64,000 bases of DNA from Octopus vulgaris (lineage: Eukaryota): assembly GCA_951406725.2 (NCBI GenBank), contig OX597814.1, positions 166,284,001 through 166,348,000 of the forward strand, in the 5' to 3' direction. Positions 1,829 to 53,957 of the stretch are shown here, piece by piece; within the stretch, counting starts at the first letter, position 1, and each line of letters begins with the position of its first letter. Both the position numbers and the translations under genes were made by a program. The notes under the pieces were generated by a model. It was not told where the DNA came from, did no database searches, and worked only from the letters and a program-made list of their open reading frames with translations.

Positions 1829-1925
1829 ATAATAATAATAATAATAATAAAAAGAATTTTACAACTTATTCACCAACAGGTGAGTATAATGAAAGCAATA
1901 TTAACAGAAATGTAAAAAATAATAC

Positions 1926-3586: not shown

Positions 3587-3605
3587 CTGCAAGAAAAGAA
3601 AAATT

Positions 3606-4395
<790 letters not shown>

Positions 4396-4630
4396 ATCTA
4401 TATGTATATAAATGTATATATATATAGAAGTATACATATCTAATCTTATATTTTTGTATTTCATTAAGTCACTTGACTGTGGCCATGCTGGAGCACGGGC
4501 TTTAGAAAATGAAAACATTTAGTAAGACCACCATGTAAATAAATCTTGGCAGAGATTTGAAACCTCTGCTTGTATGCTATGTTACTATTTCTAAACACCC
4601 TTACCTACTGAGCCACCAAATCAGCTTTCA

Positions 4631-5271: not shown

Positions 5272-5534
5272 TATATACACAAACATGAGTTTCCATATAG
5301 TTCCCATGTGTCAAATTCATTTACAAGGCAGCAATCAGCTCTGGATTATAGTAGCAGATACCTGCCCAAGGTGCCACACAGTGGGACTGAACCAGAAACT
5401 ATGTGGTTGCAAAACCAACTTCTTAACCTCACCACCATAAATAAAGTTGCAAAGTAATATAAAAAATATCCTGTATGCTTTTATATCTGTGTTTACTGGT
5501 GTGTGCTGGTAAAATATATTCAAAATTAGCTTAC

Positions 5535-5657
5535 GCATAACTTAGTTGGATGTGTCCCTGAAGTTTGATGTGAAAATTAGACAGTTTGAAATTGGTTCCT
5601 TTACCAGGGACGAAATTCACCGAAGGGCTGCCATATGAGAATTGTGTTATTTTCATC
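5535..5657 (-). CDS. LBP/BPI-family gene, coding exon 3
   Basis: Acceptor tttctttcag, donor GC|gtaag, 123 bp, phase 2 to 2. Encodes MKITQFSYGSPSVNFVPGKGTNFKLSNFHIKLQGHIQLSY, resembling the BPI segment [34 protein letters not shown]. Confidence 0.9.
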
Positions 5658-6689
5658 CTGAAAGAAATAAAAATATGTACATATTTAACAATTGCCTTGT
5701 CAAAGAGTAATTTCAGCCATTGAAGAACATACAAAAATATTATATTCGCTTTTATTTATTTCTTTATAAGCATTGCTTATGGGCAATGTTGTTAGTTTAG
5801 CTTGTTTCTTTGAGTATTTCTTCCATATCTCTGTCTCTTTTGAGGTTAACTTCACCATTTATCCTTTTGAGCTGAAGTAAAAGTACCACCCCAGTGCAGT
5901 GCAGTGGCATTTGGTGGAACTGTTGGAGGGTTCGGCAAAATGTTTTGCACTATCTTTTCTGGCTCTTTGCTTTCTGATAGCAGTGCCTGTGATGACAATA
6001 GTGCCTGACTGCATTGTTCCAAGTTGGCAGTCTCTCTGTTCAATAGCCATTGGTAGCATGGAGAGAAGAGAGACATGCATGCATGAACAACTGCCAGTCC
6101 TTCTCAAAAAAACTTGCCCTGGCCTGCACATATACATGCAGTTGTATGGACAAAGATATTTTGATGTTAATTATGGTGAGTTACAGATCAGAGGAAAGAT
6201 ATTTCAATCCTGGTTCATCTTATCTTTTTACAGACATACAGTTATCCCATGAGTCCTGCAGTTTTTTTTTTAAACTCTTAATATCAACCTGACTTGCATC
6301 AGCTGTACTAAAGTGTTAATATTTAAATTAAAATCTTGATAGAAAAAATTCTCTTAATATGAATGACATTGAGAGATTTCAGGTTAATGTAGCAAAACTA
6401 AGTAATTAATTAATTCATTCATTCATTAATATATGCATACATATTTCATACACACATACACATGTACATATGTATATACATAAATACATGCAAACATACA
6501 CATATACTTACTTACAGACATATAAAGTTACAGATGTTTCACTAAAACTTTCTTAAGTTTTAAAATATTGTCATAAAATGGTTAAGACAGTAGGGTATAA
6601 TTTGAGAAAAATTTCTAGCAAGTCAAGCATCTGTACAGATCTTCCTCCTCTAAGTAGGTAATAAGTTATATGTAAATCTACAGGGGTAT

Positions 6690-7140
6690 CATCATCATCA
6701 TCGTTTAACGTTCGCTTTCCATGCTAGCATGGGTTGGACGATTTGACTGAGGTCTGGTGAACCAGATGGCTGCACCAGACTCCAATCTGATCAGATTCTA
6801 CAGCTGGATGCCCTTCCTAATGCCAACCACTCTGAGAGTGTAGTAGGTGCATTTATGTGCCACCGGCATGAGGGCCAGTTAGGTGGTACTGACAACGGCC
6901 ACACTCAAATGGTACTTTTTATGTGCCACCTGCACAGGAGCCAGTCCAGTGGCACTGGCAATGACTTCGCCCGAATGTTTTCTTTCACGTGCCACTAGCT
7001 CAAGTGCTAGTAAGGCAACACAGGTAACGATCACGCTCGAATGGTGTTTTTAATGTGCCATCGGCACAGAGGCCAGCTTGTTGCTCTGGCAACGATCTCA
7101 CTCATATGGTACTCTTAGCGCTCCACTAGCAACAGATGCC
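6690..7140 (-). mobile_element. 3' UTR fragment of an RTE-like LINE with (GAT)n tail
   Basis: Reverse-complement match to 19900-20322, which follows an RTE-like ORF end. Confidence 0.65.
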
Positions 7141-8152
7141 ACCACCACCACCACCACTGCAGTCACCACCAGCACCATCATCGCCACCATCATCATCTTT
7201 TATACTGGTATAGGTTGAATTATTTGACAAGATCCAATGAGCCAAGTACTGTGTCAAGCTCCAGTGTCTGCTTTAACATGATTTCTATTGTTGGATACCC
7301 TTCCCAATGCCAATCACTCTACAGAGTGTAGTGTGTGCTTTTTTATGATACTGGAACTTGTGAAGTTACCAAGTAAATTGCAAGATGAAAAAAAATCTCC
7401 CTTGACTAAGTGGAGGCATAGCAGGGAGAGAGAGATGGCTTTATATTAGATGTTGGGAGTTCATAGCTACCCCACATTGTATGGTAGTACATGGCTACCC
7501 CATATTGTTTAAAGGTGAGTGAGAATAGCTAGAAGGAGAAAGATGATGATGACAAAGTCTCAGGGAATACCTCAAGGTACAAAAAGATGAGTAGAAGAGA
7601 AAATAGGGAGAGAGGAAGAGGGTAAGTTCACAAGAGTCTGAGAGGTGAGTGATAGATTGTTAGAAATGGGGGTATGTAGAGAATGTTGACAAGAGTGGAG
7701 GTATAACTGAGGGGAAAGGTGAAAGAATTAGTTGGTCATGAAGGAGGAGGTGATAAGCAGCAGTACAGAAAGGGTGAAGAGCAGTAGTATTAAAGTGTAG
7801 ATAGATAGATGTGAATAGGGAGATGATGAGGGGGTGGGGTGGGGCCGTTTGGAAAAAGTGGAGTGCTGGAAGAGAGAGGGGGTGGGGTATTGTGATAGAG
7901 ATAGTTGTCAGGGGTGTGTAAAGGTGGATACAGTGAGTGGCAAATGAAGGTGGTAGGGCAGTCAACGGCAGATATAAGAGGGTGTTACGAATGAGGTATG
8001 GTAGCCAAAAGATATAGCTAAGGAGAAAGGTAGATGTAGGGTGATCAGTGGAAAATATAGTGGGAATGGAGAATATTGAGAAGGAGGGATGGATGTTGAA
8101 CAGAAGCAGTTTCAGGGAGAGAGATGAGGGATAATGTAGTACAAAAGTGGGT

Positions 8153-13479: not shown

Positions 13480-14772
13480 CGAGGGGCGTTCAATAAGTAA
13501 TGCCCCTGACCCACTTCCCATAGCAGTAGAGCAACGAAACTTGGCACAGTTATTAGTCTTTTTCTACATAGGAACCACCCAGAGTTACGCATTTCTCCCA
13601 TCGTTTGATGCAGCTCTGGAGACCGTTTTTGTAGAAGACCCCAGCTTGGTCCTCCAACCACGACGTGACTTCAGAAATCAAGGCTGCATCATCTGGGAAA
13701 CGCTTTCCTTTCAAAAACAACTTCATGGCTGGGAAGAGGTGAAAATCAGAGGGTGCAAGGTCAGGAGAGTAGAAGGGATGGGGGAGGAGTTCATAGCCGC
13801 ACGCCTGTGCTTCTGATCTGGCGACACGCAAGTTGTGGACCGGAGCGTTGTCCTGCAAGAGGAGGATGCCTTTGCTGATCTTGCCCCGCCTCTTGATTTT
13901 AATAGCTTCTCTTAATTTCATCAAAAGTGAAGCATAATAGGCTCCTGTAATTGTGGTACCCTTTGCCAGGAAATCTGTCATCACTACTCCGTCCTGGTCC
14001 CAGAAGACTGTGAGCATGACCTTGCCAGCGGAGGGTTGCACCCTTGCCTTCTTTGGAGGAGGTGAGTCACAGTGCTTCCACTGCATTGACTGGGCTTTGG
14101 TCTCTGGATCATAGTGATGGACCCAGGTTTCATCCTGTGTAATCAGTCTTTTGAAAAATTTTGACTCATCTTCTTGGTACATCTCCAAATTCATCCTCGA
14201 GCACTCGACGCGTTCTTGCTTCTGGAAAGGTGTGAGCAACCTGGGAATCCATCTGACAGACACCTTTTGCATATGCAAATGGTCATAAATGATAGTTTCC
14301 ACAGACCCGGTACTAATCTTGACCTCATGGGCTATTTGGCGAATAGTTATGCATCGATCTTCCAAAATGGCAGCCTCAACTTGACGGATAGATGCCTCAT
14401 CAATGGCAAAAGGGGGATGACCAGATCTGGGAGCTGTTTCCACAGAGTTCCGACCATGTTTGAATTCACGATGCCAGCGTTTTACAAGGTCATATGATGG
14501 GGCATCATCACCATAAGTTACTTTCATTTCATCAAAAGTCTCCCGTGGTGTGCGTCCTTTCAAATACAAAAACCGGATCACTGCTCGACACTCAACAGGC
14601 TCCATTTCACACTTGACTCAGTTCAAACACCTGTAAATCAGAAACCACAATTAGTTCAGAGCTGTCATTTTCCACTTAATCTATAGAGATATAAATAATT
14701 GCACATGCAAACTTTCAGCTAGATCAAACAACTGCAAGTGGGTCAGAGGCATTACTTATTGAACGCCCCTTG
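13480..14772 (-). mobile_element. Full-length mariner transposon (1293 bp)
   Basis: 37-bp TIRs (cgaggggcgttcaataagtaatgcccctgacccactt; 2 mismatches between ends); TA duplications at 13478-79 and 14773-74. Confidence 0.95.
13553..14605 (-). CDS. Mariner DD34D transposase, intact 350-aa ORF (resembles the irritans/Himar1 group)
   Basis: Motifs WIPRLL, ITQDETW, SAGKVMLTVFWD, LLQDNAP and HPFYSPDLAPSD; 34 residues between the second and third Asp. Confidence 0.93.
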   Translation of the reverse strand: MEPVECRAVIRFLYLKGRTPRETFDEMKVTYGDDAPSYDLVKRWHREFKHGRNSVETAPRSGHPPFAIDEASIRQVEAAILEDRCITIRQIAHEVKISTGSVETIIYDHLHMQKVSVRWIPRLLTPFQKQERVECSRMNLEMYQEDESKFFKRLITQDETWVHHYDPETKAQSMQWKHCDSPPPKKARVQPSAGKVMLTVFWDQDGVVMTDFLAKGTTITGAYYASLLMKLREAIKIKRRGKISKGILLLQDNAPVHNLRVARSEAQACGYELLPHPFYSPDLAPSDFHLFPAMKLFLKGKRFPDDAALISEVTSWLEDQAGVFYKNGLQSCIKRWEKCVTLGGSYVEKD

Positions 14773-15265: not shown

Positions 15266-15443
15266 CATATATAATATATATAAATTAGAGATTAAATCGA
15301 AAAACAATTCAATTTAAAATATAATATATTTATGATATATTTTATTTTCTCTAATTTATATATATATTATATATTTTTATTGTGAAATTTGATTTAATAC
15401 TAAATTGAATTTTTCCCTGTAAGTTTGGAGTTATACTCCCTAA

Positions 15444-15521
<78 letters not shown>

Positions 15522-31695: not shown

Positions 31696-31759
<64 letters not shown>

Positions 31760-31810
31760 GTAGGATAAAATTTTTTCGGAAAAAAATTCTATCAAAGGTT
31801 AAATTATAAA

Positions 31811-32183
<373 letters not shown>

Positions 32184-32368
32184 AGTATATGAAAGAATGG
32201 AGTTGAACGACTAGTTAACAAATATCCTTTATTCTCGACATATTTATGTAGAAGAGGTTTGCTCGAAACGGAAAATCCTCTTTCTTTCCTTTCCTGAGTG
32301 TCTGATAATGCAGTATTTGTACCATGTCCTCGCGTTGTTGTTTTTGCTTGCTTGTTCTTTGTTTGGAT

Positions 32369-32447
<79 letters not shown>

Positions 32448-32461
32448 CATACATACATACA

Positions 32462-32497
<36 letters not shown>

Positions 32498-32701
32498 CAT
32501 AATTGAATGAATTATCTTATTAAGGATTATTCGAAAGATAACCGATACCTGGGTAGCAAATTCACATCAGAAAGAACACGGTTGAAGCTACGTCCCTAGG
32601 GCATAGACTACGTGTCTTCGTGCGGAAATTTGTAGGTTTATTTTAAAATTATAAGTATATGAAAGAATGGAGTTGAACGACTAGTTCACAAATATCCTTT
32701 A

Positions 32702-32784
32702 TTCTCGACATATGTTTCGAAGGCTGCATATTCCTAATTCCAAAGGAATAAGGAGTACATTATGCAGATTTCTCATCAGGAAAA
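32702..32784 (-). ncRNA. Type I hammerhead ribozyme (mirror of 32940-33022)
   Basis: Reverse complement of the plus-strand motif with all core nucleotides intact. Confidence 0.8.
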
Positions 32785-32939
32785 TCAAGGAACTTAATTA
32801 GACATCAAAATGCACAAAAAACTTTTAGCTGACCGCTCTCAAGGAGCCCATGGCGATAGACTCATTATCGGCATGGGCTCCTTGAGAGTGGTCAGCTAAA
32901 AGTTTTTTGTGCATTTTGATGTCGACATAAGTTCCTTGA

Positions 32940-33022
32940 TTTTCCTGATGAGAAATCTGCATAATGTACTCCTTATTCCTTCGGAATTAGGAATATGCAG
33001 CCTTCGAAACATATGTCGAGAA
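32940..33022 (+). ncRNA. Type I hammerhead ribozyme
   Basis: Stem I ttttc/gagaa; core CTGATGA 32945-51; long stem II (ctgcata/tatgcag with an inner hairpin); GAAAC 33006-10; palindromic stem III ACATATGT; cleavage triplet GTC 33015-17. Confidence 0.8.
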
Positions 33023-33226
33023 TAAAGGATATTTGTGAACTAGTCGTTCAACTCCATTCTTTCATATACTTATAATTTTAAAATAAACCTACAAATTTCC
33101 GCACGAAGACACGTAGTCTATGCCCTAGGGACGTAGCTTCAACCGTGTTCTTTCTGATGTGAATTTGCTACCCAGGTATCGGTTATCTTTCGAATTATCC
33201 TTAATAAGATAATTCATTCAATTATG

Positions 33227-33262
<36 letters not shown>

Positions 33263-33308
33263 TGTATGTATGTATGTATGTATGTATGTATGTATGTATG
33301 TATGTATG

Positions 33309-33380
<72 letters not shown>

Positions 33381-33582
33381 ATCCAAACAAAGAACAAGCA
33401 AGCAAAAACAACAACGCGAGGACATGGTACAAATACTGCATTATCAGACACTCAGGAAAGGAAAGAAAGAGGATTTTCCGTTTCGAGCAAACCTCTTCTA
33501 CAGAAATAGAGCAAAGTCCAAAAGAAGGGAAGACGGAGGAAGAAAATCGTCAACGATATGCACGTGGTTACATCTTGAAATA

Positions 33583-33640
<58 letters not shown>

Positions 33641-33790
33641 AACAGGTTGCTTGACCGCATACCGAAAAAATAGAAATAGCAGTCAAGAATGCTTATTTCT
33701 ATCAAAGTTGGACTCCGGGCATGACAGACCCTGTAATTCACATATGCAAAACAGAAGGAATAGATAACGAATACGAAGTCTGGCGGTTAT

Positions 33791-33901
33791 CTGTGAACAT
33801 CATGTTTCTGGATTATAAACATATTGAATATATATTCCATATATTTTTAGTATATATTTCATATATATTGCATATATATTTCACATCCTTCTTCAGCACA
33901 G
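33791..33901 (-). ncRNA. Type I hammerhead ribozyme (inverted copy)
   Basis: Reverse complement of 34073-34183. Confidence 0.7.
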
Positions 33902-34072
33902 CTTTCCATTGAAAAAGATTTATCATAGATTTATGGGAAGATTTATGAATTCAAACGTCTATGTAGGTTTAGCCTTTGCTCACTTTCTTCAAATATTTTG
34001 ATGTCGCATGGTCAGAAGGTTTGAGGTACGTAGCATTTGATAAATCTATGATAAATCTTTTTCAATGGAAAG

Positions 34073-34183
34073 CTGTGCTGAAGAAGGATGTGAAATATAT
34101 ATGCAATATATATGAAATATATACCAAAAATATATGGAATATATATTCAATATGTTTATAATCCAGAAACATGATGTTCACAG
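34073..34183 (+). ncRNA. Type I hammerhead ribozyme with a long AT-rich stem II
   Basis: Stem I ctgtg/cacag; CTGAAGA 34078-84; stem II base ggat/atcc enclosing ~70 nt; GAAAC 34166-70; stem III aca-tga-tgt; triplet GTT 34176-78. Confidence 0.7.
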
Positions 34184-34714
34184 ATAACCGCCAAACTTCG
34201 TATTCGTTATCTATTCCTTCTGTTTTGCATATGTGAATTACAGGGTCTGTCATGCCCGGAGTCCAACTTTGATAGAAATAAGCATTCTTGACTGCTATTT
34301 CTATTTTTTCGGTATGCGGTCAAGCAACCTGTTTTGCCTGTCCCTTTTTCTTATACACAATATATATACTGAACTTTACAGAAGTTCCTGCCGGTAATCG
34401 GCTATATTTACATACCGAATTCTACCAGTAAATAATTGAGGTTTTTTTAAAAGCCTTTATAGAAATTATTTACTCTTATCATTATATTACTATTTGGATT
34501 TTTCACTCCATTTGACAACCTAATTGTTCCCCATCTTACGGAACTATTTTTGTAATGCGCATGGCAAAATTTTGGAGGGAAGATTTATGAATTCAAACGT
34601 CTATGTAGGTTTAGCCTTTGCTCACTTTCTTCAAATATTTTGATGTCGCATGGTCAGAAGGTTTGAGGTACGTAGCATTTGATAAATCTATGATAAATCT
34701 TTTTCAATGGAAAG

Positions 34715-34825
34715 CTGTGCTGAAGAAGGATGTGAAATATATATGCAATATATATGAAATATATACCAAAAATATATGGAATATATATTCAATATGTTTA
34801 TAATCCAGAAACATGATGTTCACAG
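34715..34825 (+). ncRNA. Type I hammerhead ribozyme, second tandem copy
   Basis: Same motif 642 bp downstream of 34073-34183. Confidence 0.7.
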
Positions 34826-35122
34826 ATAACCGCCAGACTTCGTATTCGTTATCTATTCCTTCTGTTTTGCATATGTGAATTACAGGGTCTGTCATGCCCG
34901 GAGTCCAACTTTGATAGAAATAAGCATTCTTGACTGCTATTTCTATTTTTTCGGTATGCGGTCAAGCAACCTGTTTTGCCTGTCCCTTTTTCTTATACAC
35001 AATATATATACTGAACTTTACAGAAGTTCCTGCCGGTAATCGGCTATATTTACATACCGAATTCTACCAGTAAATAATTGAGGTTTTTTTAAAAGCCTTT
35101 ATAGAAATTATTTACTCTTATC

Positions 35123-35196
<74 letters not shown>

Positions 35197-35197
<1 letters not shown>

Positions 35198-35518
35198 CAA
35201 GGAAAAATTGTAAAAATGCAGAATGCTAAATTGAAAGAAAATTTTAATGAAATGAGAAATTGATAAAATACATAAATATATATTTATTCAAACCGGTTTT
35301 CGTCATAATGTGACTTATCAAGAATAGTTAGGTAAATTTTTTTTAAAGTGAGAAAGGGGAAAAAAGAAAGTTGCATAACTTCCTTTAACTATTCTTGATA
35401 AGTCACATTATGACGAAAACCGGTTTGAATAAATATATATTTATATATTTTATCAATTTCTCATTTCATTAAATTTTCTTTCAATTTAGCATTCTGCATT
35501 TTTACAATTTTTCCTTGC
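35197..35518. repeat. Inverted repeat (~134-bp arms) between (TA)n tracts, with a hammerhead-like motif in each arm
   Basis: Arms 35197-35330 and 35386-35518. Plus-strand motif 35390-35431: tattc TTGATAA gtca-catta-tgac GAAA accggt tt gaata; mirror at 35285-35326. Confidence 0.75.
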
Positions 35519-35934
35519 TTATCATTTCTCCACGTGCGGTCAACACAACCCCACCATTTATTGATCTATATATATATATATATATATATATATGCTTACG
35601 AACAACATAGTTCCGGGTTCAGTCCCACTGCGTGGCACCTTTGGGCAAGTGTCTTCTACTATGGCCTCGGGCTGACCAAAGCCTTGTGAGTAGATTTGGT
35701 AGACGGAAACTGAAAGAAGCCCGTCGCATATATGCATATATATATATATGTTTGTGTGTCTGTGTTTGTCGCCCCCTAACATCGCCTGACAACCGATGTT
35801 GGTGTGCTTATGTCCCCGTAACTTAGGCGGTTCGGCAAAAGAGACCGATAGAATAAGTACTAGGCTTACAAAGAATAAGTCCTGGGGTCGATTTGCTCGA
35901 CTAAAGGAGGTGCTCCAGCATGGCCACAGTCACA

Positions 35935-38412: not shown

Positions 38413-38458
<46 letters not shown>

Positions 38459-38716
38459 GAATGGTTTACACCTGGTGGCTTACTGGTAAAGCACGGTCAC
38501 TTTTCACTGTGATCGTTATGTATATGGTAAATGAAAGCTGATGCTAGATGTATATGGCAAATGAGGAATCGATGCTAGATGTGTCGAAACAATTGTCATG
38601 ATTTATAATAAATGATTGTATATTCTATCTTCCGTCTTTCATTTGCCATATTTGTTTTCAATATGGTGTGAATAACATCTTTCTTTATTGAATTGTTTAA
38701 TAGAGGTTTTCTCTCT

Positions 38717-38775
<59 letters not shown>

Positions 38776-38951
38776 ATAAATATTAGGGAATAAATCCAAA
38801 ATTACAGGGAAAAAAATCAGATTTAGGATTAAATCCAATTTTATAGTAAAATATTATAAAATATTATTAGAGACAAAACCACTATTTTGCAAAACAAACA
38901 AGGAAAGACTTAATCAATACATAAAATTTTAATAAATAGTCAAAAAAACCG

Positions 38952-38994
38952 CCACTACAATCGTTTCTTGTCTTGATCGACAATCTTCAGGTGG
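38952..38994 (-). ncRNA. Minimal type I hammerhead ribozyme, left terminus
   Basis: Reverse complement of 53598-53640. Confidence 0.8.
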
Positions 38995-39590
38995 ACTTCA
39001 ATCTAAAATATCAATATTTTAAAATATACAAATAATAATTTTAAAATAATTAAAGTATGAATGAAAAAATATAAATATATAATCCATATATAACCTATAT
39101 ATAATCCATATATAATCAATATATAAACAATATATAAACTAAAATAAACCTATCAACAATTAAATATAAAATATAAAATATAAAATATAAAATATAAAAC
39201 AAAACAAAAAAATAATAATAATATAATAATAAACTATATATACACCCATACACATATACCTAATTATATATAACCATATCTAACTACATACACTAAACCA
39301 CACACCTATATATATATCCCTATACATACACATAAAAACGTCTAGGCAACTATAAATAAATAAAATAGCTAAATACTTCAACACAATACTTATTCATACT
39401 CCCACACACACACACATACAACCCACATTCACGCTCTAGAAAACGGACATCACTCAAAATTATGAACGGAGAAATGGAATAAATGGAATTAAAAATTATA
39501 TTCACTTGGTAAAACGAACACTACTTAAAAATTATGAATGAAACAATGCAATAAAACAACAGACATCGCAAATATACACAAATTACTACG

Positions 39591-42500
39591 AATTCCTTAA
39601 CAAACCTACCATGATAAACCAAAACTCACAAAAACATATAATGATAAAATCTCCCTTTACTAAACTCTATAACATACCTATATAGCAATCCCCCTAACCT
39701 AAACATTCACACACAAATACACACACGTAAACCACACACCCACGACATATACAAATACCCACACCACTTACACATACCAATACATACATATAAACCTCAA
39801 CATATACTCCAAAAACCCACTCAACCCCACACAGACAAATAAACACAAAAATTATGAATGGATTCTTTTATAAAACTACCATGATAAGCTAAAACTCACA
39901 AAACAGAAATGATAAAACCTCCCTTTACTAAACACTATAACATACTTATATAGCAATCCCTTTAACCTATACATTCACACACAAAAACACACATGTAAAC
40001 CACACACCCATAACAAATACAAACACCCACCCCACTCACACACACCCACAAGTACATATAAGCCTCAACATATACACGAACAAAATTACTTTACCAAGGA
40101 ACTTAACATATGTATAAAAAGTATAACCGCTCTGGAAACGAACATCTCTAAATTAATGAATGGAGAAATGGAATAAATGGAATTAAAAATAATATTCACG
40201 TGGCAAAACGAACACCACTCAAAAATTATGAATTAAACAATGCAATAAAACAACCAACATCGAAAATAGACAAATTACCACGAATTCCCTAAAAAAACCC
40301 ATGATAAACCAAAACTCTTAAAAACATATAACGATAAAATCTCCCTTTGCTAAACTCTATAACAAACCTATATAGCAATCCCCCTAACCTAAACATTCAC
40401 ACACAAATACACACACGTAAACCACAGACCCACGACTTATACACATACCTATACTAACTTATAAACCTCAATATACACCAAAATCCACTCCCTCCACACA
40501 CAGACAAATTAACACATACATCCCAAAACCTAAATAACAAACCCATATACACATTCACACACAAACACACACACACGCAAAACACACACACACAACAGAT
40601 ACATATACTCCCTCACATATACGCATATACATACTCACTAAACTCGATATATACAACAATATTTACACACCCACACTCATACAGATAAATAAATTATACA
40701 ACTAAAAACTCACACACAATCTCATATACATAAACACTCCTATGAAAACAACATTAAATACATCGTAATTAACCAGAATATCAAAAATAACAATATGACA
40801 TAAGGATAAATAAAATACATACTTACAAGTCAGTTTCAAATTATAAAGTGAAATTAAATTCTTAGCCGTTAAAAAAATCAAACCAAAATTACGTTACCAT
40901 AGAAATAACTTATGTAAAAAAAGAATACGCGTCATGGAAAGTAAACGTCATTTAAAATTATGAATGGAGAAAAAGAATAAATGGAACTAAAAACTATATC
41001 CACGTGGCAAACCAACACTACTTAAAAAAATTTATTATGAATGGATTCTTTAAAAAACTACCATGAAAAATCATTATATACATTTATGAGCTTTAGCTCA
41101 CCTTAGCAGCTCTAACAAACAACTTGCAGCAACCCAAACCTATTCTCGATGCCTACCTCACTACTACACTATTCCACTCACAATTCCAAGCAACGCTAGT
41201 CCACCACCCGGTTACAATTCCCAACTCCACCCATTCATTCACAATTTCAACGACGTTCGCCTCCACAGCGCTACATATAAGCCTCAACATATACACCGGA
41301 GATTCACATCCGTGCGAATGGGTGAGAGTAATTCCTTAACAAACCTACCAAGATAAACCAAAACTCACAAAACATATAATGATAAAATCTCCCTTTACTA
41401 AACTCTATAACATACCTATATAGCAATCCCCCTAACCTAAACATTCACACACAAATACACACACGTAAACCACACACCCACGACATATACAGATACCCAC
41501 ACCACTTACACATACCAATACATACATATAAACCTCAACATATACTCCAAAACCCACTCAACCCCACACATACAAATAAACACAAAAATTATGAATGGAT
41601 TCTTTTATAAAACTACCATGATAAGCTAAAACTCACAAAACAGAAATAATAAAACCTCCCTTACTAAACACTATAACATACTTATATAGCAATCCCTTTA
41701 ACCTATACATTCACACACAAAAAAAACACACTCGTAAACCACACACCCATAACAAATACAAACACCCACCCCACTCACACACACCCACAAGTACATATAA
41801 GCCTCAACATATACACGAACAAAATTACTTTACCAAGGAACTTAACATATGTATAAAAAGTATAACCGCTCTGGAAACGAACATCTCTAAATTAATGAAT
41901 GGAGAAATGGAATAAATGGAATTAAAAATAATATTCACGTGGCAAAACGAACACCACTCAAAAATTATGAATTAAACAATGCAATAAAACAACCAACATC
42001 GAAAATAGACAAATTACCACGAATTCCCTAAAAAAACCCATGATAAACCAAAACTCTTAAAAACATATAACGATAAAATCTCCCTTTGCTAAACTCTATA
42101 ACAAACCTATATAGCAATCCCCCTAACCTAAACATTCACACACAAATACACACACGTAAACCACAGACCCACGACTTATACACATACCTATACTAACTTA
42201 TAAACCTCAATATACACCAAAATCCACTCCCTCCACACACAGACAAATTAACACATACATCCCAAAACCTAAATAACAAACCCATATACACATTCACACA
42301 CAAACACACACACACGCAAAACACACACACACAACAGATACATATACTCCCTCACATATACGCATATACATACTCACTAAACTCGATATATACAACAATA
42401 TTTACACACCCACACTCATACAGATAAATAAATTATACAACTAAAAACTCACACACAATCTCATATACATAAACACTCCTATGAAAACAACATTAAATAC

Positions 42501-44812
42501 ATCGTAATTAACCAGAATATCAAAAATAACAATATGACATAAGGATAAATAAAATACATACTTACAAGTCAGTTTCAAATTATAAAGTGAAATTAAATTC
42601 TTAGCCGTTAAAAAAATCAAACCAAAATTACGTTACCATAGAAATAACTTATGTAAAAAAAGAATACGCGTCATGGAAAGTAAACGTCATTTAAAATTAT
42701 GAATGGAGAAAAAGAATAAATGGAACTAAAAACTATATCCACGTGGCAAACCAACACTACTTAAAAAAATTTATTATGAATGGATTCTTTAAAAAACTAC
42801 CATGAAAAATCATTATATACATTTATGAGCTTTAGCTCACCTTAGCAGCTCTAACAAACAACTTGCAGCAACCCAAACCTATTCTCGATGCCTACCTCAC
42901 TACTACACTATTCCACTCACAATTCCAAGCAACGCTAGTCCACCACCCGGTTACAATTCCCAACTCCACCCATTCATTCACAATTTCAACGACGTTCGCC
43001 TCCACAGCGCTACATATAAGCCTCAACATATACACCGGAGATTCACATCCGTGCGAATGGGTGAGAGTAATTCCTTAACAAACCTACCAAGATAAACCAA
43101 AACTCACAAAACATATAATGATAAAATCTCCCTTTACTAAACTCTATAACATACCTATATAGCAATCCCCCTAACCTAAACATTCACACACAAATACACA
43201 CACGTAAACCACACACCCACGACATATACAGATACCCACACCACTTACACATACCAATACATACATATAAACCTCAACATATACTCCAAAACCCACTCAA
43301 CCCCACACATACAAATAAACACAAAAATTATGAATGGATTCTTTTATAAAACTACCATGATAAGCTAAAACTCACAAAACAGAAATAATAAAACCTCCCT
43401 TACTAAACACTATAACATACTTATATAGCAATCCCTTTAACCTATACATTCACACACAAAAAAAACACACTCGTAAACCACACACCCATAACAAATACAA
43501 ACACCCACCCCACTCACACACACCCACAAGTACAAATAAGCCTCAACATATACACCAAACAAAATTACTTTACCAAGGAACTTAACATATGTATAAAAAA
43601 TATAACCGCTCTGGAAACGAACATCTCTAAATTAATGAATGGAGAAATGGAATAAATGGAATTAAAAATAATATTCACGTGGCAAAACGAACACCACTCA
43701 AAAATTATGAATGAAACAATGTAATAAAACAACCAACATCTAAAATAGACAAATTACCACGAATTCCCTAAAAAAACCATGATAAACCAAATCTCTTAAA
43801 ACCTATAACGATAAAATCTCCCTTTGCTAAACTCTATAACAAACCTATATAGCAATCCCCCTAACCTAAACATTCACACACAAATACACACACTTAAACC
43901 ACAGACCCACGACTTATACACATACCTATACTAACTTATAAACCTCAATATACACCAAAACCCACTCCCTCACCACACAGACAAATTAACACATACATCC
44001 CAAAACCTAAATAACAAACCCATATACACATTCACACACAAACACACACACACGCAAAACACACACACACAACAGATACATATACTCCCTCACATATACG
44101 CATATACATACTCACTAAACTCGATATATACAACAATATTTACACACCCACACTCATACAGATAAATAAATTATACAACTAAAAACTCACACACAATCTC
44201 ATATACATAAACACTCCTATGAAAACAACATTAAATACATCGTAATTAACCAGAATATCAAAAATAACAATATGACATAAGGATAAATAAAAAACATACT
44301 TACAAGTCAGTTTCAAATTATGAAGTGAAATTAAATTCTTAGCCGTTAAAAAAAACCAAACCAAAATTACGTTACCATAGAAATAACTTATGTAAAAAAA
44401 GAATACGCGCCATAGAAAGTAAACGTCATTTAAAATTATGAATGGAGAAAAAGAATAAATGGAACTAAAAACTACATCCACGTGGCAAACCAACACTACT
44501 TAAAAAAATTTATTATGAATGGATTCTTTAAAAAAACTACCATGAAAAATCATTATATACATTTATGAGCTTTAGCTCACCTTAGCAGCTCTAACAAACA
44601 ACTTGCAGCAACCCAACCCATACTCGATGCCTACCTCACTACTACACTATTCCACTCACAATTCCAAGCAACGCTAGTCCACCACCCGGTTACAATTCCC
44701 AACTCCACCCATTCATTCACAATTTCAACGACGTTCGCCTCCACAGCGCTACATATAAGCCTCAACATATACACCGGAGATTCACTTTCACATCCGTGCG
44801 GATGGGTGAGAG
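39591..44812. repeat. Three ~1739-bp tandem units of C/A-rich sequence with internal ~0.3-0.4-kb subrepeats (two mirrored units at ~49519-53000)
   Basis: Unit starts aattccttaacaaacctacc at 39591, 41330 and 43069; identical ORFs at 41124 and 42863. Confidence 0.9.
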
Positions 44813-45309
44813 TATACATTGAGTGTAGTGATAGGGCTCTCATTACTATACACATTTGTACCTGTGTGGTAGTCTCCATGTGTATATTCACGCACGGGTA
44901 TAAATACAGGGGGTACACGCGCACGTCATTAGAGTGTACCCCCTCACATGTACATATGCATGCTATTTGGGCTCGATATATGCAACAATGTAATCGCGCC
45001 CGCATACATGCATATGGGCGAGTTGCACAATCAAAAAACGCACACATGTGTGTGTGCGTTCCCTGGTTGTGCAATTCACCCATCTTGGTGTGAGTGGGTG
45101 TAAACGTATCTCTGTGGATGTCAAGCTTGATACGTATGTATATGAGTGTGTATTGGGGGGTTGTACGTATTTATTGTATGCATGTGCTTCACGCACGTGC
45201 GTCCATGTATGGATGAATATATTGGGATTGCTATGTGGGTGTAAATTGGGTATGGAGTGGGGAGTTTTGTCATTGTATGGGTGTAGGTTTCATATGTGAT
45301 GGTGGTTAG

Positions 45310-47648
45310 TTGGTAATTTTTGGTATGTTCTGTATATTTGGGTTAGTTATGTATTATTCTAGTAAAGAATTACAATTACTTGAAGATAGTATATGGAAGG
45401 TGGTAAAAAATATTGAATTCCATAAATACCCTAATAGAAATAATGAATATTTAAGGAATTTAGCAATTAAAATTAAAGATATGAGAAATATGGATGGTAT
45501 TATAGTACAATCTGATAAAACAAGGAACTTATATAAATTAGATGTTAAATTATATGATAAACTATTAGGGAAAGAAATAATTAAAAAATATAAAATTGTT
45601 CCAGATGATATTCTTTATAATATTAATAAGGCCTCTAAAGTAGTAATGTTAAAATATGAGTTGGATAATAAAACTGAACCTTATGTACCTTTGCACCCCA
45701 GAATTACTCTTAAAGACCATAAAGATAATTTTTATTCAGACCCTAAAGTTAGATTAATTTGCCCATGTAAATCGGACCTAGGTAAATTAAGTAAATTTAT
45801 TTTAGATAAATATATTGATAAGTTAAATAAACTTAATTATTTAAAATTATGGTTTAGTAATAATAATACATTGAAATGGTTTAATAATATTAAAGATAAA
45901 AATCGTTATAAATTTATTCAAATAGATATAGATAATTATTATTCTTCTATTAATGAAATTGTGTTTAATAAAGCGCTTATTTTCGCAATGAATAAAGTGG
46001 GTATGTCACGGGAAGAAGTTAATGTAATTAAAATGGCTAGGAAATCGCTAATTAAATATAAAAATAAATTATGGGCTAGGAATGATACTAGAGATTGTTT
46101 TGATATACTTATGGGAGCACCAGATTCTGCACAGGCTACTGATTTAGTAGGTATTTTTCTTTTATCTGAACTCCAATTAGAAAATCTTAAGATAGAGGGT
46201 GGTTTATATAGAGACGATCTTCTACTAGTTACAAAGAATTGTACTAATAGGAATCTAGAAGTATATAAGAAAAAATTATATAGTTTCTTTAAAAGATATG
46301 GTTTAAGTATTACTATATATAAGGAGAATTATAATGTTAATTATTTAGATGTTAATTTTAATCTTATTACAGGTAAAACACAACCATATCATAAACTTAA
46401 TGAGAACCTTAGATATATAAATGTTAATAGTAATCACCCATTTTCTATTAAAAAATCGTTGATTAATAATATAAGTAAACGTATTTCATTACTCTCTTAT
46501 GATATAGAGATTTTTAATAAACATGCTAAATATTATAATGAGGCCCTTAGAGGGGCAGGTTATAATAGGAATATTAAATTTTATAATATTAGTGATAAAG
46601 ATTTAATTGTTAATTTTCGAGATACTTCTAATAATAATTATAATTTTGTTAGGTTTAGTGGTAAAAATAATAGATATTATAAAAAAAATAATAAAAATGA
46701 TAAAAATATAAATAAGAATAATAATAATAATAATAAATATAATAATAATAATATAAATAAGAATAATAAAAATAAAAATAAATTTAATAATTATTATAAT
46801 TATATTGATAAATTTAATAATATTAATAATTCCTTAAATGCTGTACATAGATATAATTCTGATAATAATTTTAATAAAATAAAGAATTATAAATATATTT
46901 ATAATAATGATAATAATAATAAGGTTAATAAGAATAAAATTTGGTTAATAGTTCCTTATGGAGATCAAGTAAAAACGAATATTATTAAAGAGATCTTAGA
47001 TGTTATAGAACTATTTATTAGAGATAATCGTAAATATAGAAACATTTTCTCTTTTAATAATTTTGGAGTTGGTTACTCTACCACTAATAATGTTGGTAAC
47101 ATTATTTCTTCATTTAATAAATATAAACTGAATAATTTTTATAAAAAAAGAAATTATTTGATAATAATATTAATAATGATAAGACTTATATTAATTGTAC
47201 ATGTAGAGATAAATCTAATTGTATATTAAACAATAATTGTGATATTAACGATGTAGTGTATAAATGTATAGTTAAATTACATGATAATAACTTTAAGAAT
47301 AATAATTACACAAAAGCGGTTTATATAGGTTCTACTTCCTCAAAAATAAAACTAAGAATCGCACAACATATGAATTCTTTTAAAAATAAAAACTTAATCA
47401 ACTCAACCGGACTTAGTAAGTACATTTGGAGTCTTAAATCACTAAATATTAATTATAGTTTAATTTGGGAAATAATTTGTAAAACTAAATCATATACTAT
47501 AGGAGCTAATTGTTGTTATTTATGCTCTAATGAGTTTAAAGAAATTTTATTTTATAAGTATGATAATTTACTTAATACTGGTGAAGAGCGCAAAATAAAA
47601 TGCAGACATAAGTTACTTTACCTATATAATAAGTTTCATGATAAATAG
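45310..47648 (+). CDS. Penelope-like RT plus C-terminal GIY-YIG endonuclease, split by one frameshift at ~47143-47149 (likely start ATG 45349)
   Basis: RT motifs SDKTRNLY, ITLKDHK..KVRLICPCKSDLGKLSK, FIQIDIDNYYSSI, MGAPDSAQ, GLYRDD, VNYLDVNF, YINVNSNHP. The -1 frame continues CTCRDKSNCILNNNC..VVYKC..VYIGST..RIAQH..CYLC..LLN..CRH. Confidence 0.9.
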
Positions 47649-48291
47649 CAATAATAGTTCCCTTTTAGGTTACTTTAGTTTAGTTTAAATTAGTTTAGAT
47701 AATATATTTTAGGTTATGTTGTCTAGGATTTATTTATAGTTAGTCTTTATTGATATTTCTTTGTTTTAATTAGTTCATTTTTAATGTATATTATTTTAAC
47801 AGTATATGGTATGTTAAAACTTTAATAATTTATATTAGATTTTTTATTTTCTTTCTTTATATATTTTTTTATTTTTTTATTTTTATTTTATTTTATTATG
47901 TATTTTTATAATGCATTTGCTATATGTATTTTGGAGGATATATTTATATGTTGATGGGTGTTATTTAGTGGTGTTTTTATTGAGTTTTGTATGTATGTGT
48001 GAATGTTTATGATCCCTTTGTTTTTTGTTTTTTTATTTGGTATGTTGAATGGCAGATTTTTGGGTATTGTCTGTTATAATAAAGTACACACACCCATAAC
48101 AAATATAAGTGCCCACTTCATTCGTTGTACCAGGAATTGCATGTGAGCCTCAACATATACACCTAACGGCCACTCCCGCCCCATATGGATAAATAAACAC
48201 ATACATCCCCAATAATGGGTAATCCCACTCACACAAATCATATGTATACAATTATACACACTAGAATAATACATAACTAACCCAAATATAC

Positions 48292-49021
48292 AGCCATTTT
48301 AATTACATTAACTTCTTCCCGTGACATACCCACTTTATTCATTGCGAAAATAAGCGCTTTATTAAACACAATTTCATTTAATAGAAGAATAATAATTATC
48401 TATATCTATTTGAATAAATTTATAACGATTTTTATCTTTAATATTATTAAACCATTTCAATGTATTATTATTACTAAACCATAATTTTAAATAATTAAGT
48501 TTATTTAACTTATCAATATATTTATCTAAAATAAATTTACTTAATTTACCTAGGTCCGATTTACATGGGCAAATTAATCTAACTTTAGGGTCTGAATAAA
48601 AATTATCTTTATGGTCTTTAAGAGTAATTCTGGGGTGCAAAGGTACATAAGGTTCAGTTTTATTATCCAACTCATATTTTAACATTACTACTTTAGAGGC
48701 CTTATTAATATTATAAAGAATATCATCTGGAACAATTTTATATTTTTTAATTATTTCTTTCCCTAATAGTTTATCATATAATTTAACATCTAATTTATAT
48801 AAGTTCCTTGTTTTATCAGATTGTACTATAATACCATCCATATTTCTCATATCTTTAATTTTAATTGCTAAATTCCTTAAATATTCATTATTTCTATTAG
48901 GGTATTTATGGAATTCAATATTTTTTACCACCTTCCATATACTATCTTCAAGTAATTGTAATTCTTTACTAGAATAATACATAACTAACCCAAATATACA
49001 GAACATACCAAAAATTACCAA
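48292..49021 (-). pseudogene. Inverted, truncated copy of the 5' part of the Penelope-like ORF
   Basis: Matches the N-terminus of the 45310 ORF until a 1-bp insertion near 48376; truncated at 48292. Confidence 0.85.
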
Positions 49022-52000
49022 CTAACCACCATCACATATGAAACCTACACCCATACAATGACAAAACTCCCCACTCCATACCCAATTTACACCCACATAG
49101 CAATCCCAATATATTCATCCATACATGGACGCACGTGCGTGAAGCACATGCATACAATAAATACGTACAACCCCCCAATACACACTCATATACATACGTA
49201 TCAAGCTTGACATCCACAGAGATACGTTTACACCCACTCACACCAAGATGGGTGAATTGCACAACCAGGGAACGCACACACACATGTGTGCGTTTTTTGA
49301 TTGTGCAACTCGCCCATATGCATGTATGCGGGCGCGATTACATTGTTGCATATATCGAGCCCAAATAGCATGCATATGTACATGTGAGGGGGTACACTCT
49401 AATGACGTGCGCGTGTACCCCCTGTATTTATACCCGTGCGTGAATATACACATGGAGACTACCACACAGGTACAAATGTGTATAGTAATGAGAGCCCTAT
49501 CACTACACTCAATGTATACTCTCACCCATCCGCACGGATGTGAAAGTGAATCTCCGGTGTATATGTTGAGGCTTATATGTAGCGCTGTGGAGGCGAACGT
49601 CGTTGAAATTGTGAATGAATGGGTGGAGTTGGGAATTGTAACCGGGTGGTGGACTAGCGTTGCTTGGAATTGTGAGTGGAATAGTGTAGTAGTGAGGTAG
49701 GCATCGAGTATGGGTTGGGTTGCTGCAAGTTGTTTGTTAGAGCTGCTAAGGTGAGCTAAAGCTCATAAATGTATATAATGATTTTTCATGGTAGTTTTTT
49801 TAAAGAATCCATTCATAATAAATTTTTTTAAGTAGTGTTGGTTTGCCACGTGGATGTAGTTTTTAGTTCCATTTATTCTTTTTCTCCATTCATAATTTTA
49901 AATGACGTTTACTTTCTATGGCGCGTATTCTTTTTTTACATAAGTTATTTCTATGGTAACGTAATTTTGGTTTGGTTTTTTTTAACGGCTAAGAATTTAA
50001 TTTCACTTCATAATTTGAAACTGACTTGTAAGTATGTTTTTTATTTATCCTTATGTCATATTGTTATTTTTGATATTCTGGTTAATTACGATGTATTTAA
50101 TGTTGTTTTCATAGGAGTGTTTATGTATATGAGATTGTGTGTGAGTTTTTAGTTGTATAATTTATTTATCTGTATGAGTGTGGGTGTGTAAATATTGTTG
50201 TATATATCGAGTTTAGTGAGTATGTATATGCGTATATGTGAGGGAGTATATGTATCTGTTGTGTGTGTGTGTTTTGCGTGTGTGTGTGTTTGTGTGTGAA
50301 TGTGTATATGGGTTTGTTATTTAGGTTTTGGGATGTATGTGTTAATTTGTCTGTGTGGTGAGGGAGTGGGTTTTGGTGTATATTGAGGTTTATAAGTTAG
50401 TATAGGTATGTGTATAAGTCGTGGGTCTGTGGTTTAAGTGTGTGTATTTGTGTGTGAATGTTTAGGTTAGGGGGATTGCTATATAGGTTTGTTATAGAGT
50501 TTAGCAAAGGGAGATTTTATCGTTATAGGTTTTAAGAGATTTGGTTTATCATGGTTTTTTTAGGGAATTCGTGGTAATTTGTCTATTTTAGATGTTGGTT
50601 GTTTTATTACATTGTTTCATTCATAATTTTTGAGTGGTGTTCGTTTTGCCACGTGAATATTATTTTTAATTCCATTTATTCCATTTCTCCATTCATTAAT
50701 TTAGAGATGTTCGTTTCCAGAGCGGTTATATTTTTTATACATATGTTAAGTTCCTTGGTAAAGTAATTTTGTTTGGTGTATATGTTGAGGCTTATTTGTA
50801 CTTGTGGGTGTGTGTGAGTGGGGTGGGTGTTTGTATTTGTTATGGGTGTGTGGTTTACGAGTGTGTTTTTTTTGTGTGTGAATGTATAGGTTAAAGGGAT
50901 TGCTATATAAGTATGTTATAGTGTTTAGTAAGGGAGGTTTTATTATTTCTGTTTTGTGAGTTTTAGCTTATCATGGTAGTTTTATAAAAGAATCCATTCA
51001 TAATTTTTGTGTTTATTTGTATGTGTGGGGTTGAGTGGGTTTTGGAGTATATGTTGAGGTTTATATGTATGTATTGGTATGTGTAAGTGGTGTGGGTATC
51101 TGTATATGTCGTGGGTGTGTGGTTTACGTGTGTGTATTTGTGTGTGAATGTTTAGGTTAGGGGGATTGCTATATAGGTATGTTATAGAGTTTAGTAAAGG
51201 GAGATTTTATCATTATATGTTTTGTGAGTTTTGGTTTATCTTGGTAGGTTTGTTAAGGAATTACTCTCACCCATTCGCACGGATGTGAATCTCCGGTGTA
51301 TATGTTGAGGCTTATATGTAGCGCTGTGGAGGCGAACGTCGTTGAAATTGTGAATGAATGGGTGGAGTTGGGAATTGTAACCGGGTGGTGGACTAGCGTT
51401 GCTTGGAATTGTGAGTGGAATAGTGTAGTAGTGAGGTAGGCATCGAGAATAGGTTTGGGTTGCTGCAAGTTGTTTGTTAGAGCTGCTAAGGTGAGCTAAA
51501 GCTCATAAATGTATATAATGATTTTTCATGGTAGTTTTTTAAAGAATCCATTCATAATAAATTTTTTTAAGTAGTGTTGGTTTGCCACGTGGATATAGTT
51601 TTTAGTTCCATTTATTCTTTTTCTCCATTCATAATTTTAAATGACGTTTACTTTCCATGACGCGTATTCTTTTTTTACATAAGTTATTTCTATGGTAACG
51701 TAATTTTGGTTTGATTTTTTTAACGGCTAAGAATTTAATTTCACTTTATAATTTGAAACTGACTTGTAAGTATGTATTTTATTTATCCTTATGTCATATT
51801 GTTATTTTTGATATTCTGGTTAATTACGATGTATTTAATGTTGTTTTCATAGGAGTGTTTATGTATATGAGATTGTGTGTGAGTTTTTAGTTGTATAATT
51901 TATTTATCTGTATGAGTGTGGGTGTGTAAATATTGTTGTATATATCGAGTTTAGTGAGTATGTATATGCGTATATGTGAGGGAGTATATGTATCTGTTGT

Positions 52001-53597
52001 GTGTGTGTGTTTTGCGTGTGTGTGTGTTTGTGTGTGAATGTGTATATGGGTTTGTTATTTAGGTTTTGGGATGTATGTGTTAATTTGTCTGTGTGTGGAG
52101 GGAGTGGATTTTGGTGTATATTGAGGTTTATAAGTTAGTATAGGTATGTGTATAAGTCGTGGGTCTGTGGTTTACGTGTGTGTATTTGTGTGTGAATGTT
52201 TAGGTTAGGGGGATTGCTATATAGGTTTGTTATAGAGTTTAGCAAAGGGAGATTTTATCGTTATATGTTTTTAAGAGTTTTGGTTTATCATGGGTTTTTT
52301 TAGGGAATTCGTGGTAATTTGTCTATTTTCGATGTTGGTTGTTTTATTGCATTGTTTAATTCATAATTTTTGAGTGGTGTTCGTTTTGCCACGTGAATAT
52401 TATTTTTAATTCCATTTATTCCATTTCTCCATTCATTAATTTAGAGATGTTCGTTTCCAGAGCGGTTATACTTTTTATACATATGTTAAGTTCCTTGGTA
52501 AAGTAATTTTGTTCGTGTATATGTTGAGGCTTATATGTACTTGTGGGTGTGTGTGAGTGGGGTGGGTGTTTGTATTTGTTATGGGTGTGTGGTTTACATG
52601 TGTGTTTTTGTGTGTGAATGTATAGGTTAAAGGGATTGCTATATAAGTATGTTATAGTGTTTAGTAAAGGGAGGTTTTATCATTTCTGTTTTGTGAGTTT
52701 TAGCTTATCATGGTAGTTTTATAAAAGAATCCATTCATAATTTTTGTGTTTATTTGTCTGTGTGGGGTTGAGTGGGTTTTTGGAGTATATGTTGAGGTTT
52801 ATATGTATGTATTGGTATGTGTAAGTGGTGTGGGTATTTGTATATGTCGTGGGTGTGTGGTTTACGTGTGTGTATTTGTGTGTGAATGTTTAGGTTAGGG
52901 GGATTGCTATATAGGTATGTTATAGAGTTTAGTAAAGGGAGATTTTATCATTATATGTTTTTGTGAGTTTTGGTTTATCATGGTAGGTTTGTTAAGGAAT
53001 TCGTAGTAATTTGTGTATATTTGCGATGTCTGTTGTTTTATTGCATTGTTTCATTCATAATTTTTAAGTAGTGTTCGTTTTACCAAGTGAATATAATTTT
53101 TAATTCCATTTATTCCATTTCTCCGTTCATAATTTTGAGTGATGTCCGTTTTCTAGAGCGTGAATGTGGGTTGTATGTGTGTGTGTGTGGGAGTATGAAT
53201 AAGTATTGTGTTGAAGTATTTAGCTATTTTATTTATTTATAGTTGCCTAGACGTTTTTATGTGTATGTATAGGGATATATATATAGGTGTGTGGTTTAGT
53301 GTATGTAGTTAGATATGGTTATATATAATTAGGTATATGTGTATGGGTGTATATATAGTTTATTATTATATTATTATTATTTTTTTGTTTTGTTTTATAT
53401 TTTATATTTTATATTTTATATTTTATATTTAATTGTTGATAGGTTTATTTTAGTTTATATATTGTTTATATATTGATTATATATGGATTATATATAGGTT
53501 ATATATGGATTATATATTTATATTTTTTCATTCATACTTTAATTATTTTAAAATTATTATTTGTATATTTTAAAATATTGATATTTTAGATTGAAGT

Positions 53598-53640
53598 CCA
53601 CCTGAAGATTGTCGATCAAGACAAGAAACGATTGTAGTGG
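53598..53640 (+). ncRNA. Minimal type I hammerhead ribozyme, right terminus
   Basis: CCAC CTGAAGA TTGTC-gatcaa-GACAA GAAAC gatt GTA GTGG: 4-bp stem I, 5-bp stem II, short near-palindromic stem III, GUA cleavage triplet, ~95 bp from (TA)n. Confidence 0.82.
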
Positions 53641-53727
53641 CGGTTTTTTTGACTATTTATTAAAATTTTATGTATTGATTAAGTCTTTCCTTGTTTGTTT
53701 TGCAAAATAGTGGTTTTGTCTCTAATA

Positions 53728-53789
<62 letters not shown>

Positions 53790-53791
<2 letters not shown>

Positions 53792-53957
53792 AGAGTTCAC
53801 GAAAAAACAACAAAAGACGAAGACAGGTGGTGTAGAAAACAAACAGCTGTATTAGTATAACGTTCAGGAATAGAAAAAGTCTTTTACGTTTCGAGCCTAC
53901 GCTCTTCTACAGAAAGGGACACAGAAAACTAACAAAGAGAGAAACAAGGCAAGAAAT
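53790..53957 (-). mobile_element. Short (TA)n-flanked element with a non-canonical hammerhead-like motif (related to 33376-33580)
   Basis: Minus strand ctgtagaa GAGC-gtag-GCTC GAAAC GTA; the same gtagaagag..ctcgaaac arrangement occurs at 32248-32270 and 33478-33503. Confidence 0.5.

Follow-up and report, generated by a model that had tools for sequence, protein, structure and literature searches.

Organization of the palindromic insertion

We analysed a 64,000-nucleotide stretch of Octopus vulgaris DNA (assembly GCA_951406725.2, contig OX597814.1, positions 166,284,001 to 166,348,000 of the forward strand; hereafter the window), in which a palindromic insertion surrounds an open reading frame (ORF) of a Penelope-like element (PLE). 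Self-BLAST of the window gave a left arm at 38851-46038 and a right arm at 48292-53742, separated by a spacer of 2.25 kb (46039-48291). At the level of the assembly, this confirms the mirrored 7.2- and 5.4-kb arms that an original prediction, made from the sequence alone, had described. The inverted matches were 41330-46038/48292-53001, at 99.7% identity, and 38851-43069/49517-53742, at 99.2%. The difference in arm length corresponds to one additional tandem unit of 1,739 bp at the left, i.e. three units versus two: R1 equals L1, R2 equals L3, and L2 is a mosaic of L3 and L1 (Table 1). When the arms were compared unit by unit, L2 aside, no substitution and, end effects apart, one interior 1-bp indel were found over ~5,450 bp; at ~48377 the arms differ by one base in a homopolymer.

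Both ends of the palindrome are embedded in (TA)n and each carries an outward hammerhead motif, at 53598-53640 (+) and 38994-38952 (−), as had been claimed. Two other points had to be corrected. The element extends 78 bp farther left than the limit first proposed, to 38773, and the right end is without this 78-bp tail; the arms, first described as non-coding, include 0.68 kb of the ORF. Among the mapped loci of the family that are two-ended, i.e. that have the 3' end of the element at both outer ends, the window copy has the longest arm and is the longest insertion, and it is the only locus found with an unequal unit number between its arms. The structure of the window is that of the assembly; the contigs compared with the element, from 8 of 24 public sequencing runs listed, are all short, and no RNA run was listed as containing the element.

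Table 1. Features of the palindromic insertion, in window coordinates (UTR, untranslated region; RT, reverse transcriptase).
Feature	Position	Strand	Remark
(TA)n target, left	38721-38772		
78-bp tail ('long' end)	38773-38850	−	in full tandem copies leads directly to the following unit's 5' UTR and ORF start
3'-terminal module, left arm	38851-39590	−	
Type I hammerhead motif, outward, predicted	38952-38994	−	found by pattern
1.74-kb 3' UTR unit L1	39591-41329	−	equals R1
G-quadruplex-like motif	40007-40047	−	the only one of the unit (unit positions 417-457)
Extra unit L2, mosaic	41330-43068	−	L3 for the first ~404 nt, L1 from ~467
1.74-kb unit L3	43069-44814	−	equals R2
3' UTR, inner part, of the left copy (inverted, 5'-truncated)	44815-45363	−	last 34 bp equal 48260-48293
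Junction J1, inverted 3' UTR to truncated ORF	45360-45363		4-nt microhomology
Hydra-clade RT and GIY-YIG ORF	45361-47648	+	first ~77 aa missing; Asn-rich insert ~46580-46940; +2 frameshift 47143-47149
3' UTR start	47649-48293	+	block inverted relative to the older subfamily begins at 48081
Junction J2, 34 nt into the would-be right arm	48292-48293		2-nt microhomology; unique in the genome
Inverted copy of ORF segment 45360-46038	48292-48971	−	ends in a second copy of J1 (48968-48971)
Sense 3' UTR: inner part, then units R2 and R1	48968-53001	+	
3'-terminal module, right arm, tail-less ('short' end)	53002-53742	+	
Type I hammerhead motif, outward	53598-53640	+	predicted cleavage after 53636
(TA)28 target, right	53734-53789		

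Family structure and classification of the encoded protein

The terminal 298 bp of the element gave 2,062 candidates in the genome, of which the 40 scored were all 99-100% identical; pieces of the ORF gave ~700 candidates. At many loci full-length copies run without interruption through ORF, UTR, hammerhead and tail, the canonical unit consisting of ~50 nt of 5' UTR, an ORF of 838 aa, a long 3' UTR, the hammerhead module and the 78-bp tail that leads into the next tandem unit. The 3' UTR measures 3,732 nt in copies with one 1.74-kb unit and ~5.5 kb in those with two, for total lengths of 6.3 kb and ~8 kb, and the hammerhead lies at least 3.5 kb downstream of the stop codon. Intact 838-aa ORFs were found at two loci (L018 and L024). 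In the window copy, the 5' truncation together with a +2 frameshift makes it unable to encode the whole protein. At the frameshift site the window has 7 A; of 32 other copies, 31 have 5 A and the remaining one is of that same shorter length, with a substitution; the frameshift, but not the truncation, may thus be a consensus error.

The intact family ORF (P0001) encodes, in one frame, a telomerase-like RT followed by a C-terminal GIY-YIG endonuclease, whose VY..YIG motif aligned with those of the homologs. The Hydra clade of PLEs is defined by DKT in place of DKG, the RWK motif, a CxCX5C linker, the CxxC and CxH motifs and the lack of CCHH (Craig et al. 2021, PMC8557442, in its section 11). 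P0001 has SDKT, KWK at the RWK column, the linker CTCRDKSNC (CxCX5C), CYLC (CxxC) and CRH (CxH), the last two adjoining the conserved E and N, and no CCHH. Among the 7,996 candidates scored, 17 homologs were obtained at E ≤ 0.001, including a protein of Octopus bimaculoides. Comparison with P0006, which by eye is nearly identical to the Hydra-2_Amil sequence of the published supplement (PMC8557442), gave 36% identity (E 5e-79). The predicted structure of P0001 has a mean pLDDT of 78 and its top 8 Foldseek matches are telomerase RTs (E 1e-9 to 1e-8, with low TM-scores); an Asn-rich insert of ~110 aa between RT and endonuclease is of low confidence. With Pfam neither the window ORFs nor P0001 had an RT or GIY-YIG match, the sole result being a sub-threshold match to clathrin-link, and the search against PDB sequences gave no significant match.

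The features of endonuclease-containing (EN+) PLEs are also present, namely partial tandems forming pseudo-long terminal repeats (pLTR), an inverted 5'-truncated copy and a tail at one end, here of 78 bp. Judged from sequence, the window palindrome is a copy of a young Hydra-clade EN+ family. The identity of the ORF as Penelope-like, put forward in the original prediction, is therefore retained, for an ORF that is itself truncated and frameshifted. The window copy is dead and gives no indication of a function for the host. Two other identities were rejected: Naiad/Chlamys, as the endonuclease is C-terminal and the hammerhead motif is present, and a non-LTR (long terminal repeat) retrozyme, as the 1.74-kb units are without hammerhead.

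Hammerhead motif

The hammerheads, found by sequence pattern, have a type I core (CUGAAGA, a 5-bp stem II, GAAAC, GUA and a 4-bp stem I), one per arm, pointing outward ~100-140 bp inside each arm end. Helix III is short and self-complementary, as it likewise is in the metazoan type I hammerheads described as acting as dimers in PMC4209133. At the gathering score Rfam gave 0 families in the whole window, hammerhead included, and single-strand folding of the monomer produced no hammerhead fold (z 0.1-0.8). The 36-nt core has 464 exact matches in the genome, and the window pair is the widest of the 26 head-to-head pairs counted by hand among the first 100 matches listed. Four older copies have kept the core and stems, with changed loops.

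One tailed and one tail-less end in two-armed copies

We mapped 126 loci including the window, picked for resembling it, for having paired hammerheads or for containing unit junctions, a non-random set biased toward long, window-like copies; six of them (L185-L190) are partly clipped by the edge of the fetched stretch. Two-ended loci number 78 of the 126, and in 76 of these one end is tailed and the other tail-less, the remaining two being one locus with two tails and one clipped by the stretch edge. The loci that came from the ORF-end search alone all show one long and one short end (19/19). The arm bearing the ORF is the long one in 9 loci and the short one in 9 (hand count, one locus with ORFs in both arms omitted).

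For arm-length statistics, 15 deliberately fetched mini-palindromes were left out, so that 63 of 111 loci were two-ended. Arms vary continuously from 33 bp to 5.5 kb; they reach at least 1 kb in 29 of the 63, at least 2 kb in 15 and at least 3 kb in 7. A single strand switch accounts for 61 of the 63, while the window and one other locus, L130, have three. Repeated template switching, first proposed as the way the insertion was built, is not supported as the main cause of the long arms; further events are required only for the extra 1.74-kb unit and for the second junction.

A deletion derivative of 270 nt forms palindromes of ~410 bp, with arms of ~140-170 bp and a centre that is different each time or nearly so, and has one long and one short end in 15 of 15. 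This derivative follows the same end rule with short arms, so that arm length tracks template length. L111-L125 (e.g. G000:C1:21224700-21225600) are ~410-bp palindromes of this non-autonomous derivative, in which a short piece of the 1.74-kb unit is fused just upstream of the hammerhead module; they make up 15 of the 26 head-to-head hammerhead pairs mentioned above.

With one end tailed and the other not, the copies agree with a pair of cDNAs that were primed at two fixed sites of a single RNA, one for each strand. In vitro, the Poseidon element PAc of Anolis was reported to use two RT start sites and to have both DNA strands cut (Frangieh et al. 2024, PMC11167929), and this biochemistry is the basis for the step proposed here. 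The RT/endonuclease would cut the (TA)n and initiate reverse transcription at two set positions, separated by 78 nt and close to the RNA's 3' end; the two cDNAs, primed from opposite sides of the cut, would lengthen inward and be joined through 1-4 nt of microhomology, the reach of the shorter one along the long UTR setting the arm length. The multi-kb arms would thus result from the long 3' UTR of the family combined with a normal two-armed insertion. For the joint claim of Hydra-clade identity, arms made of twin cDNAs and a one-unit slip giving the extra left unit, we estimate a probability of roughly 0.82.

The extra 1.74-kb unit

Arrays of 1 to 4 units exist among the copies of the family, the unit-to-unit junction occurring 37 times in the genome. 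A four-unit array at another locus (L066/L091, G000:C6, from 82986088) contains two mosaic units, and these two as well as L2 all switch within unit positions 404-466. Each mosaic matches alleles of its own locus, which indicates independent slips at one site. The extra left unit would have arisen through such a one-unit slip, and L2 can be either a one-unit duplication or the trace of a one-unit loss from the right arm. The sole G-quadruplex-like motif of the unit (417-457) falls inside the switch interval. With 3 junctions in 2 loci, a link between G-quadruplex and slips is a lead only; ordinary truncations, moreover, are not enriched at this site (3 of 55 unit breaks in positions 1300-1399), which speaks against it.

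Origin of the nested junctions

J1 occurs twice in the genome, both times in the window locus, and J2 once. The pair 45330-45363/48260-48293 was considered as an internal inverted repeat of the element and rejected, being UTR sequence of the inverted copy. The second nested palindrome with three switches lies in L130 (G000:C5:50481001-50491000, at 1652-8117). There the right arm differs from the left by many 1-3 bp deletions, and the arms stop 27 and 41 nt into the far arm. In both loci a sense/antisense junction is common to the two arms, and 3 of the 4 inward runs stop shortly past the onset of self-complementarity (27, 34 and 41 nt).

A like topology is also found fixed within the family. 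The four older copies have a 3.0-kb UTR, ~77-88% identical to the young one in the shared parts and diverging from it exactly at 48081, from which point the young subfamily has a ~0.7-kb inverted UTR block that they do not have. This fixed inversion, with its J2-like topology in an active subfamily, suggests that nested events are real and may found new masters. L169-L176 belong to an older subfamily with a 3.0-kb UTR without the inverted block.

We propose, as the least certain step of this report and with a chance somewhat short of even, that the window copy belongs to a second generation: an older palindrome would have been transcribed, and its transcript copied into the present insertion. 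The template would have been an antisense-strand transcript of a palindromic copy already holding J1. The left cDNA would have traversed the arm and the loop before stopping 34 nt inside the far arm; the right one would have ended within the loop, at 46038, and the join of both would be J2. This reading is the most economical, since only one new join is needed. Several observations weigh against it. No parent locus with J1, or with the shared junction of L130, is present elsewhere in the assembly; no A-to-G excess, such as an RNA hairpin of several kb might attract, is seen in this copy or its relatives (rare variants in 466 aligned pieces: A>G 132 vs T>C 146, with a maximum of 4 in any piece); in L130 the shared junction is not identical between its two copies, a 5-nt difference in an arm that does, however, have numerous small deletions; and none of the contigs listed from the 8 runs crosses J1 or J2. 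As the runs checked do not carry the alleles of the window copy, they are no test of the window locus. Short-read contigs break at 48292-48293 and also continue past 48293 into the canonical UTR, and thereby give independent support for the long UTR.

The nested part could also derive from a fold-back at the DNA level, which we consider doubtful: after a two-armed insertion with J1, the top strand would have returned to 46038 by folding and copied the left arm a second time, during second-strand synthesis or during later replication or repair of the palindrome, the trigger being the self-complementarity 34 nt into the right arm. Such a fold-back accounts for the double occurrence of J1, the arms free of substitutions and the stop just inside the far arm, and equally for the absent parent locus and the absent ADAR marks, but it requires that the strand jump 2.25 kb within itself with 2 nt of homology, and then return to the original tail-less right end. 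J2, by contrast, resembles the ordinary 1-4 nt joins of other loci, and L130 would require the same two extra steps. That, within a real insertion, the repeated piece of the ORF (J2), the third unit or both come from a long-read fold-back chimera or a misassembly appears improbable. The two flanks are unlike each other, and a fold-back read would be expected to copy the tail and the left flank, both of which are missing at the right end; the mosaic interval recurs in L066, the topology in L130, and the young subfamily has a similarly arranged inverted block in fixed form. An assembly artefact would nevertheless agree with the unspanned J1 and J2, with the unequal unit numbers seen at the window only, and with the difference at ~48377 and the homopolymer frameshift, both of which resemble consensus errors.

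It is very improbable that the palindrome is a purpose-built or selected double-stranded RNA (dsRNA) or regulatory device, or a terminal-inverted-repeat element moving as a 15-kb unit, even though its arms are very long and perfect and, in Drosophila, small interfering RNAs (siRNAs) were reported to map to inverted Penelope regions (PMC3681739). As J1 and J2 are absent elsewhere in the genome, the 15-kb unit has not moved as such; the continuous range of arm lengths among copies also speaks against these readings, and inspection by eye, without a library scan, of the window ORFs of at least 100 aa recognised no host exon.

Returning to the second-generation reading, we tentatively extend it to palindromic insertions in general, which may serve as templates: both strands end in a priming module and the hairpin transcript could be twin-primed again, which, along with one-unit slips at the G-quadruplex-like site, would give nested palindromes and enlarge the UTR. 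As part of the same tentative proposal, the cDNAs would halt 27-41 nt into the far arm, and one such event would have given the inverted block of the active subfamily. If true, these events together made, out of a clade of 2.5-kb elements, one of 6-8 kb that generates hairpins of kilobase size.

Comparison with known Penelope-like elements

The octopus family resembles the Hydra clade, as presented by Craig et al. (PMC8557442), in DKT, an RWK-like motif, the linker, CxxC/CxH, the lack of CCHH, the 3' hammerhead and (TA)n. The listings of that paper include an octopus member, Hydra-1_Obim, by eye a different family, and an inverted 966-nt copy at the 5' side of Penelope-13_HM. The 27 families listed there measure 1.08-3.05 kb, with the hammerhead near the end of a short UTR, whereas the present elements, at 6.3-8 kb, are two to three times longer, the excess lying wholly in the UTR. 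The tail is 30-40 bp there and 78 bp here, and the Asn-rich insert and the variable 1.74-kb tandem unit belong to the octopus family. The literature covered, mainly open access and without Repbase, reports no 6-8 kb Hydra element and no nested second-generation PLE palindromes. The giant 3' UTR is thus what is unreported for the Hydra clade; otherwise the window copy is a two-armed Penelope insertion of an ordinary kind.

Among other clades, the Penelope elements of Adineta vaga (Arkhipova et al. 2013, PMC3846280) share inverted pLTRs in which one end may be tailed, ORFs with long Asn-rich inserts, and long tandem or inverted structures that trouble assembly. They belong to the Penelope/Poseidon clade, have a very low copy number and a 31-bp tail, and their pLTRs, of about 180-220 bp, bear out the earlier statement that the present arms are far longer than published ones. 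PAc (PMC11167929) is similar in that the spacing of its start sites equals the tail, in that both strands are cut and extended, and in its predicted dimer. It is of another clade, its starts lie inside the 5' end of the ORF, and the portion of that report covered describes no genome-wide rule of one long and one short end and no nested palindromes. Rearranged Penelope copies in Drosophila likewise have long inverted repeats, reported as a source of dsRNA-derived siRNAs, in an element of 2.8 kb (PMC3681739).

Age and consequences of the insertion

The absence of substitutions between the arms agrees with the young age that had been claimed. With the calibration given for octopus repeats (JC, Jukes-Cantor, distance 0.09 at 25 million years; PMC13282606), the 95% upper bound of the insertion age is near 75,000 years, unless polishing or gene conversion homogenised the arms. 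If transcribed across, the locus would give a perfect stem of 5.4 kb. By analogy with the Drosophila copies, whose long inverted repeats are reported to yield siRNAs (PMC3681739), long dsRNA from the palindrome is plausible, as is hairpin instability. The family steadily supplies an animal genome with near-perfect kilobase palindromes, from which dsRNA, fragile sites and errors of assembly may result. PMC8557442 counts the formation of tandem and inverted PLE structures among open problems; a young, variant-rich long UTR records the starts, stops and slips of cDNAs, which makes models of it testable.

Neighbouring repeats in the window

A two-armed repeat at 33638-35129, flanked by (TA)n, contains a tandem unit of ~640 bp together with CTGAAGA cores that precede long AT-rich 11-mer repeats, and resembles a retrozyme-type insertion of another family. 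Further (TA)n-flanked palindromes lie at 32122-33638, 31757-32002 and 35196-35520, forming a cluster of nested insertions. At 15345-15452, between TA/TAT repeats, a 78% match to the Penelope tail region corresponds to the end of a related family. Beyond the (TA)n, the flanks of the palindrome (38455-38720 and 53790-53950) resemble the ends of other TA-targeting repeats, the right one with a hammerhead-like CTGTAGA...GAAAC motif on the minus strand. A 1-kb inverted pair of 96% identity (26134-27138/55879-56879), an ORF-bearing retroelement fragment with its copies 29 kb apart, encloses the palindrome. By eye, a 354-aa open frame at 13553-14617 (−) has mariner-transposase-like motifs, and the other ORFs of the window are repeat- and transposon-like.

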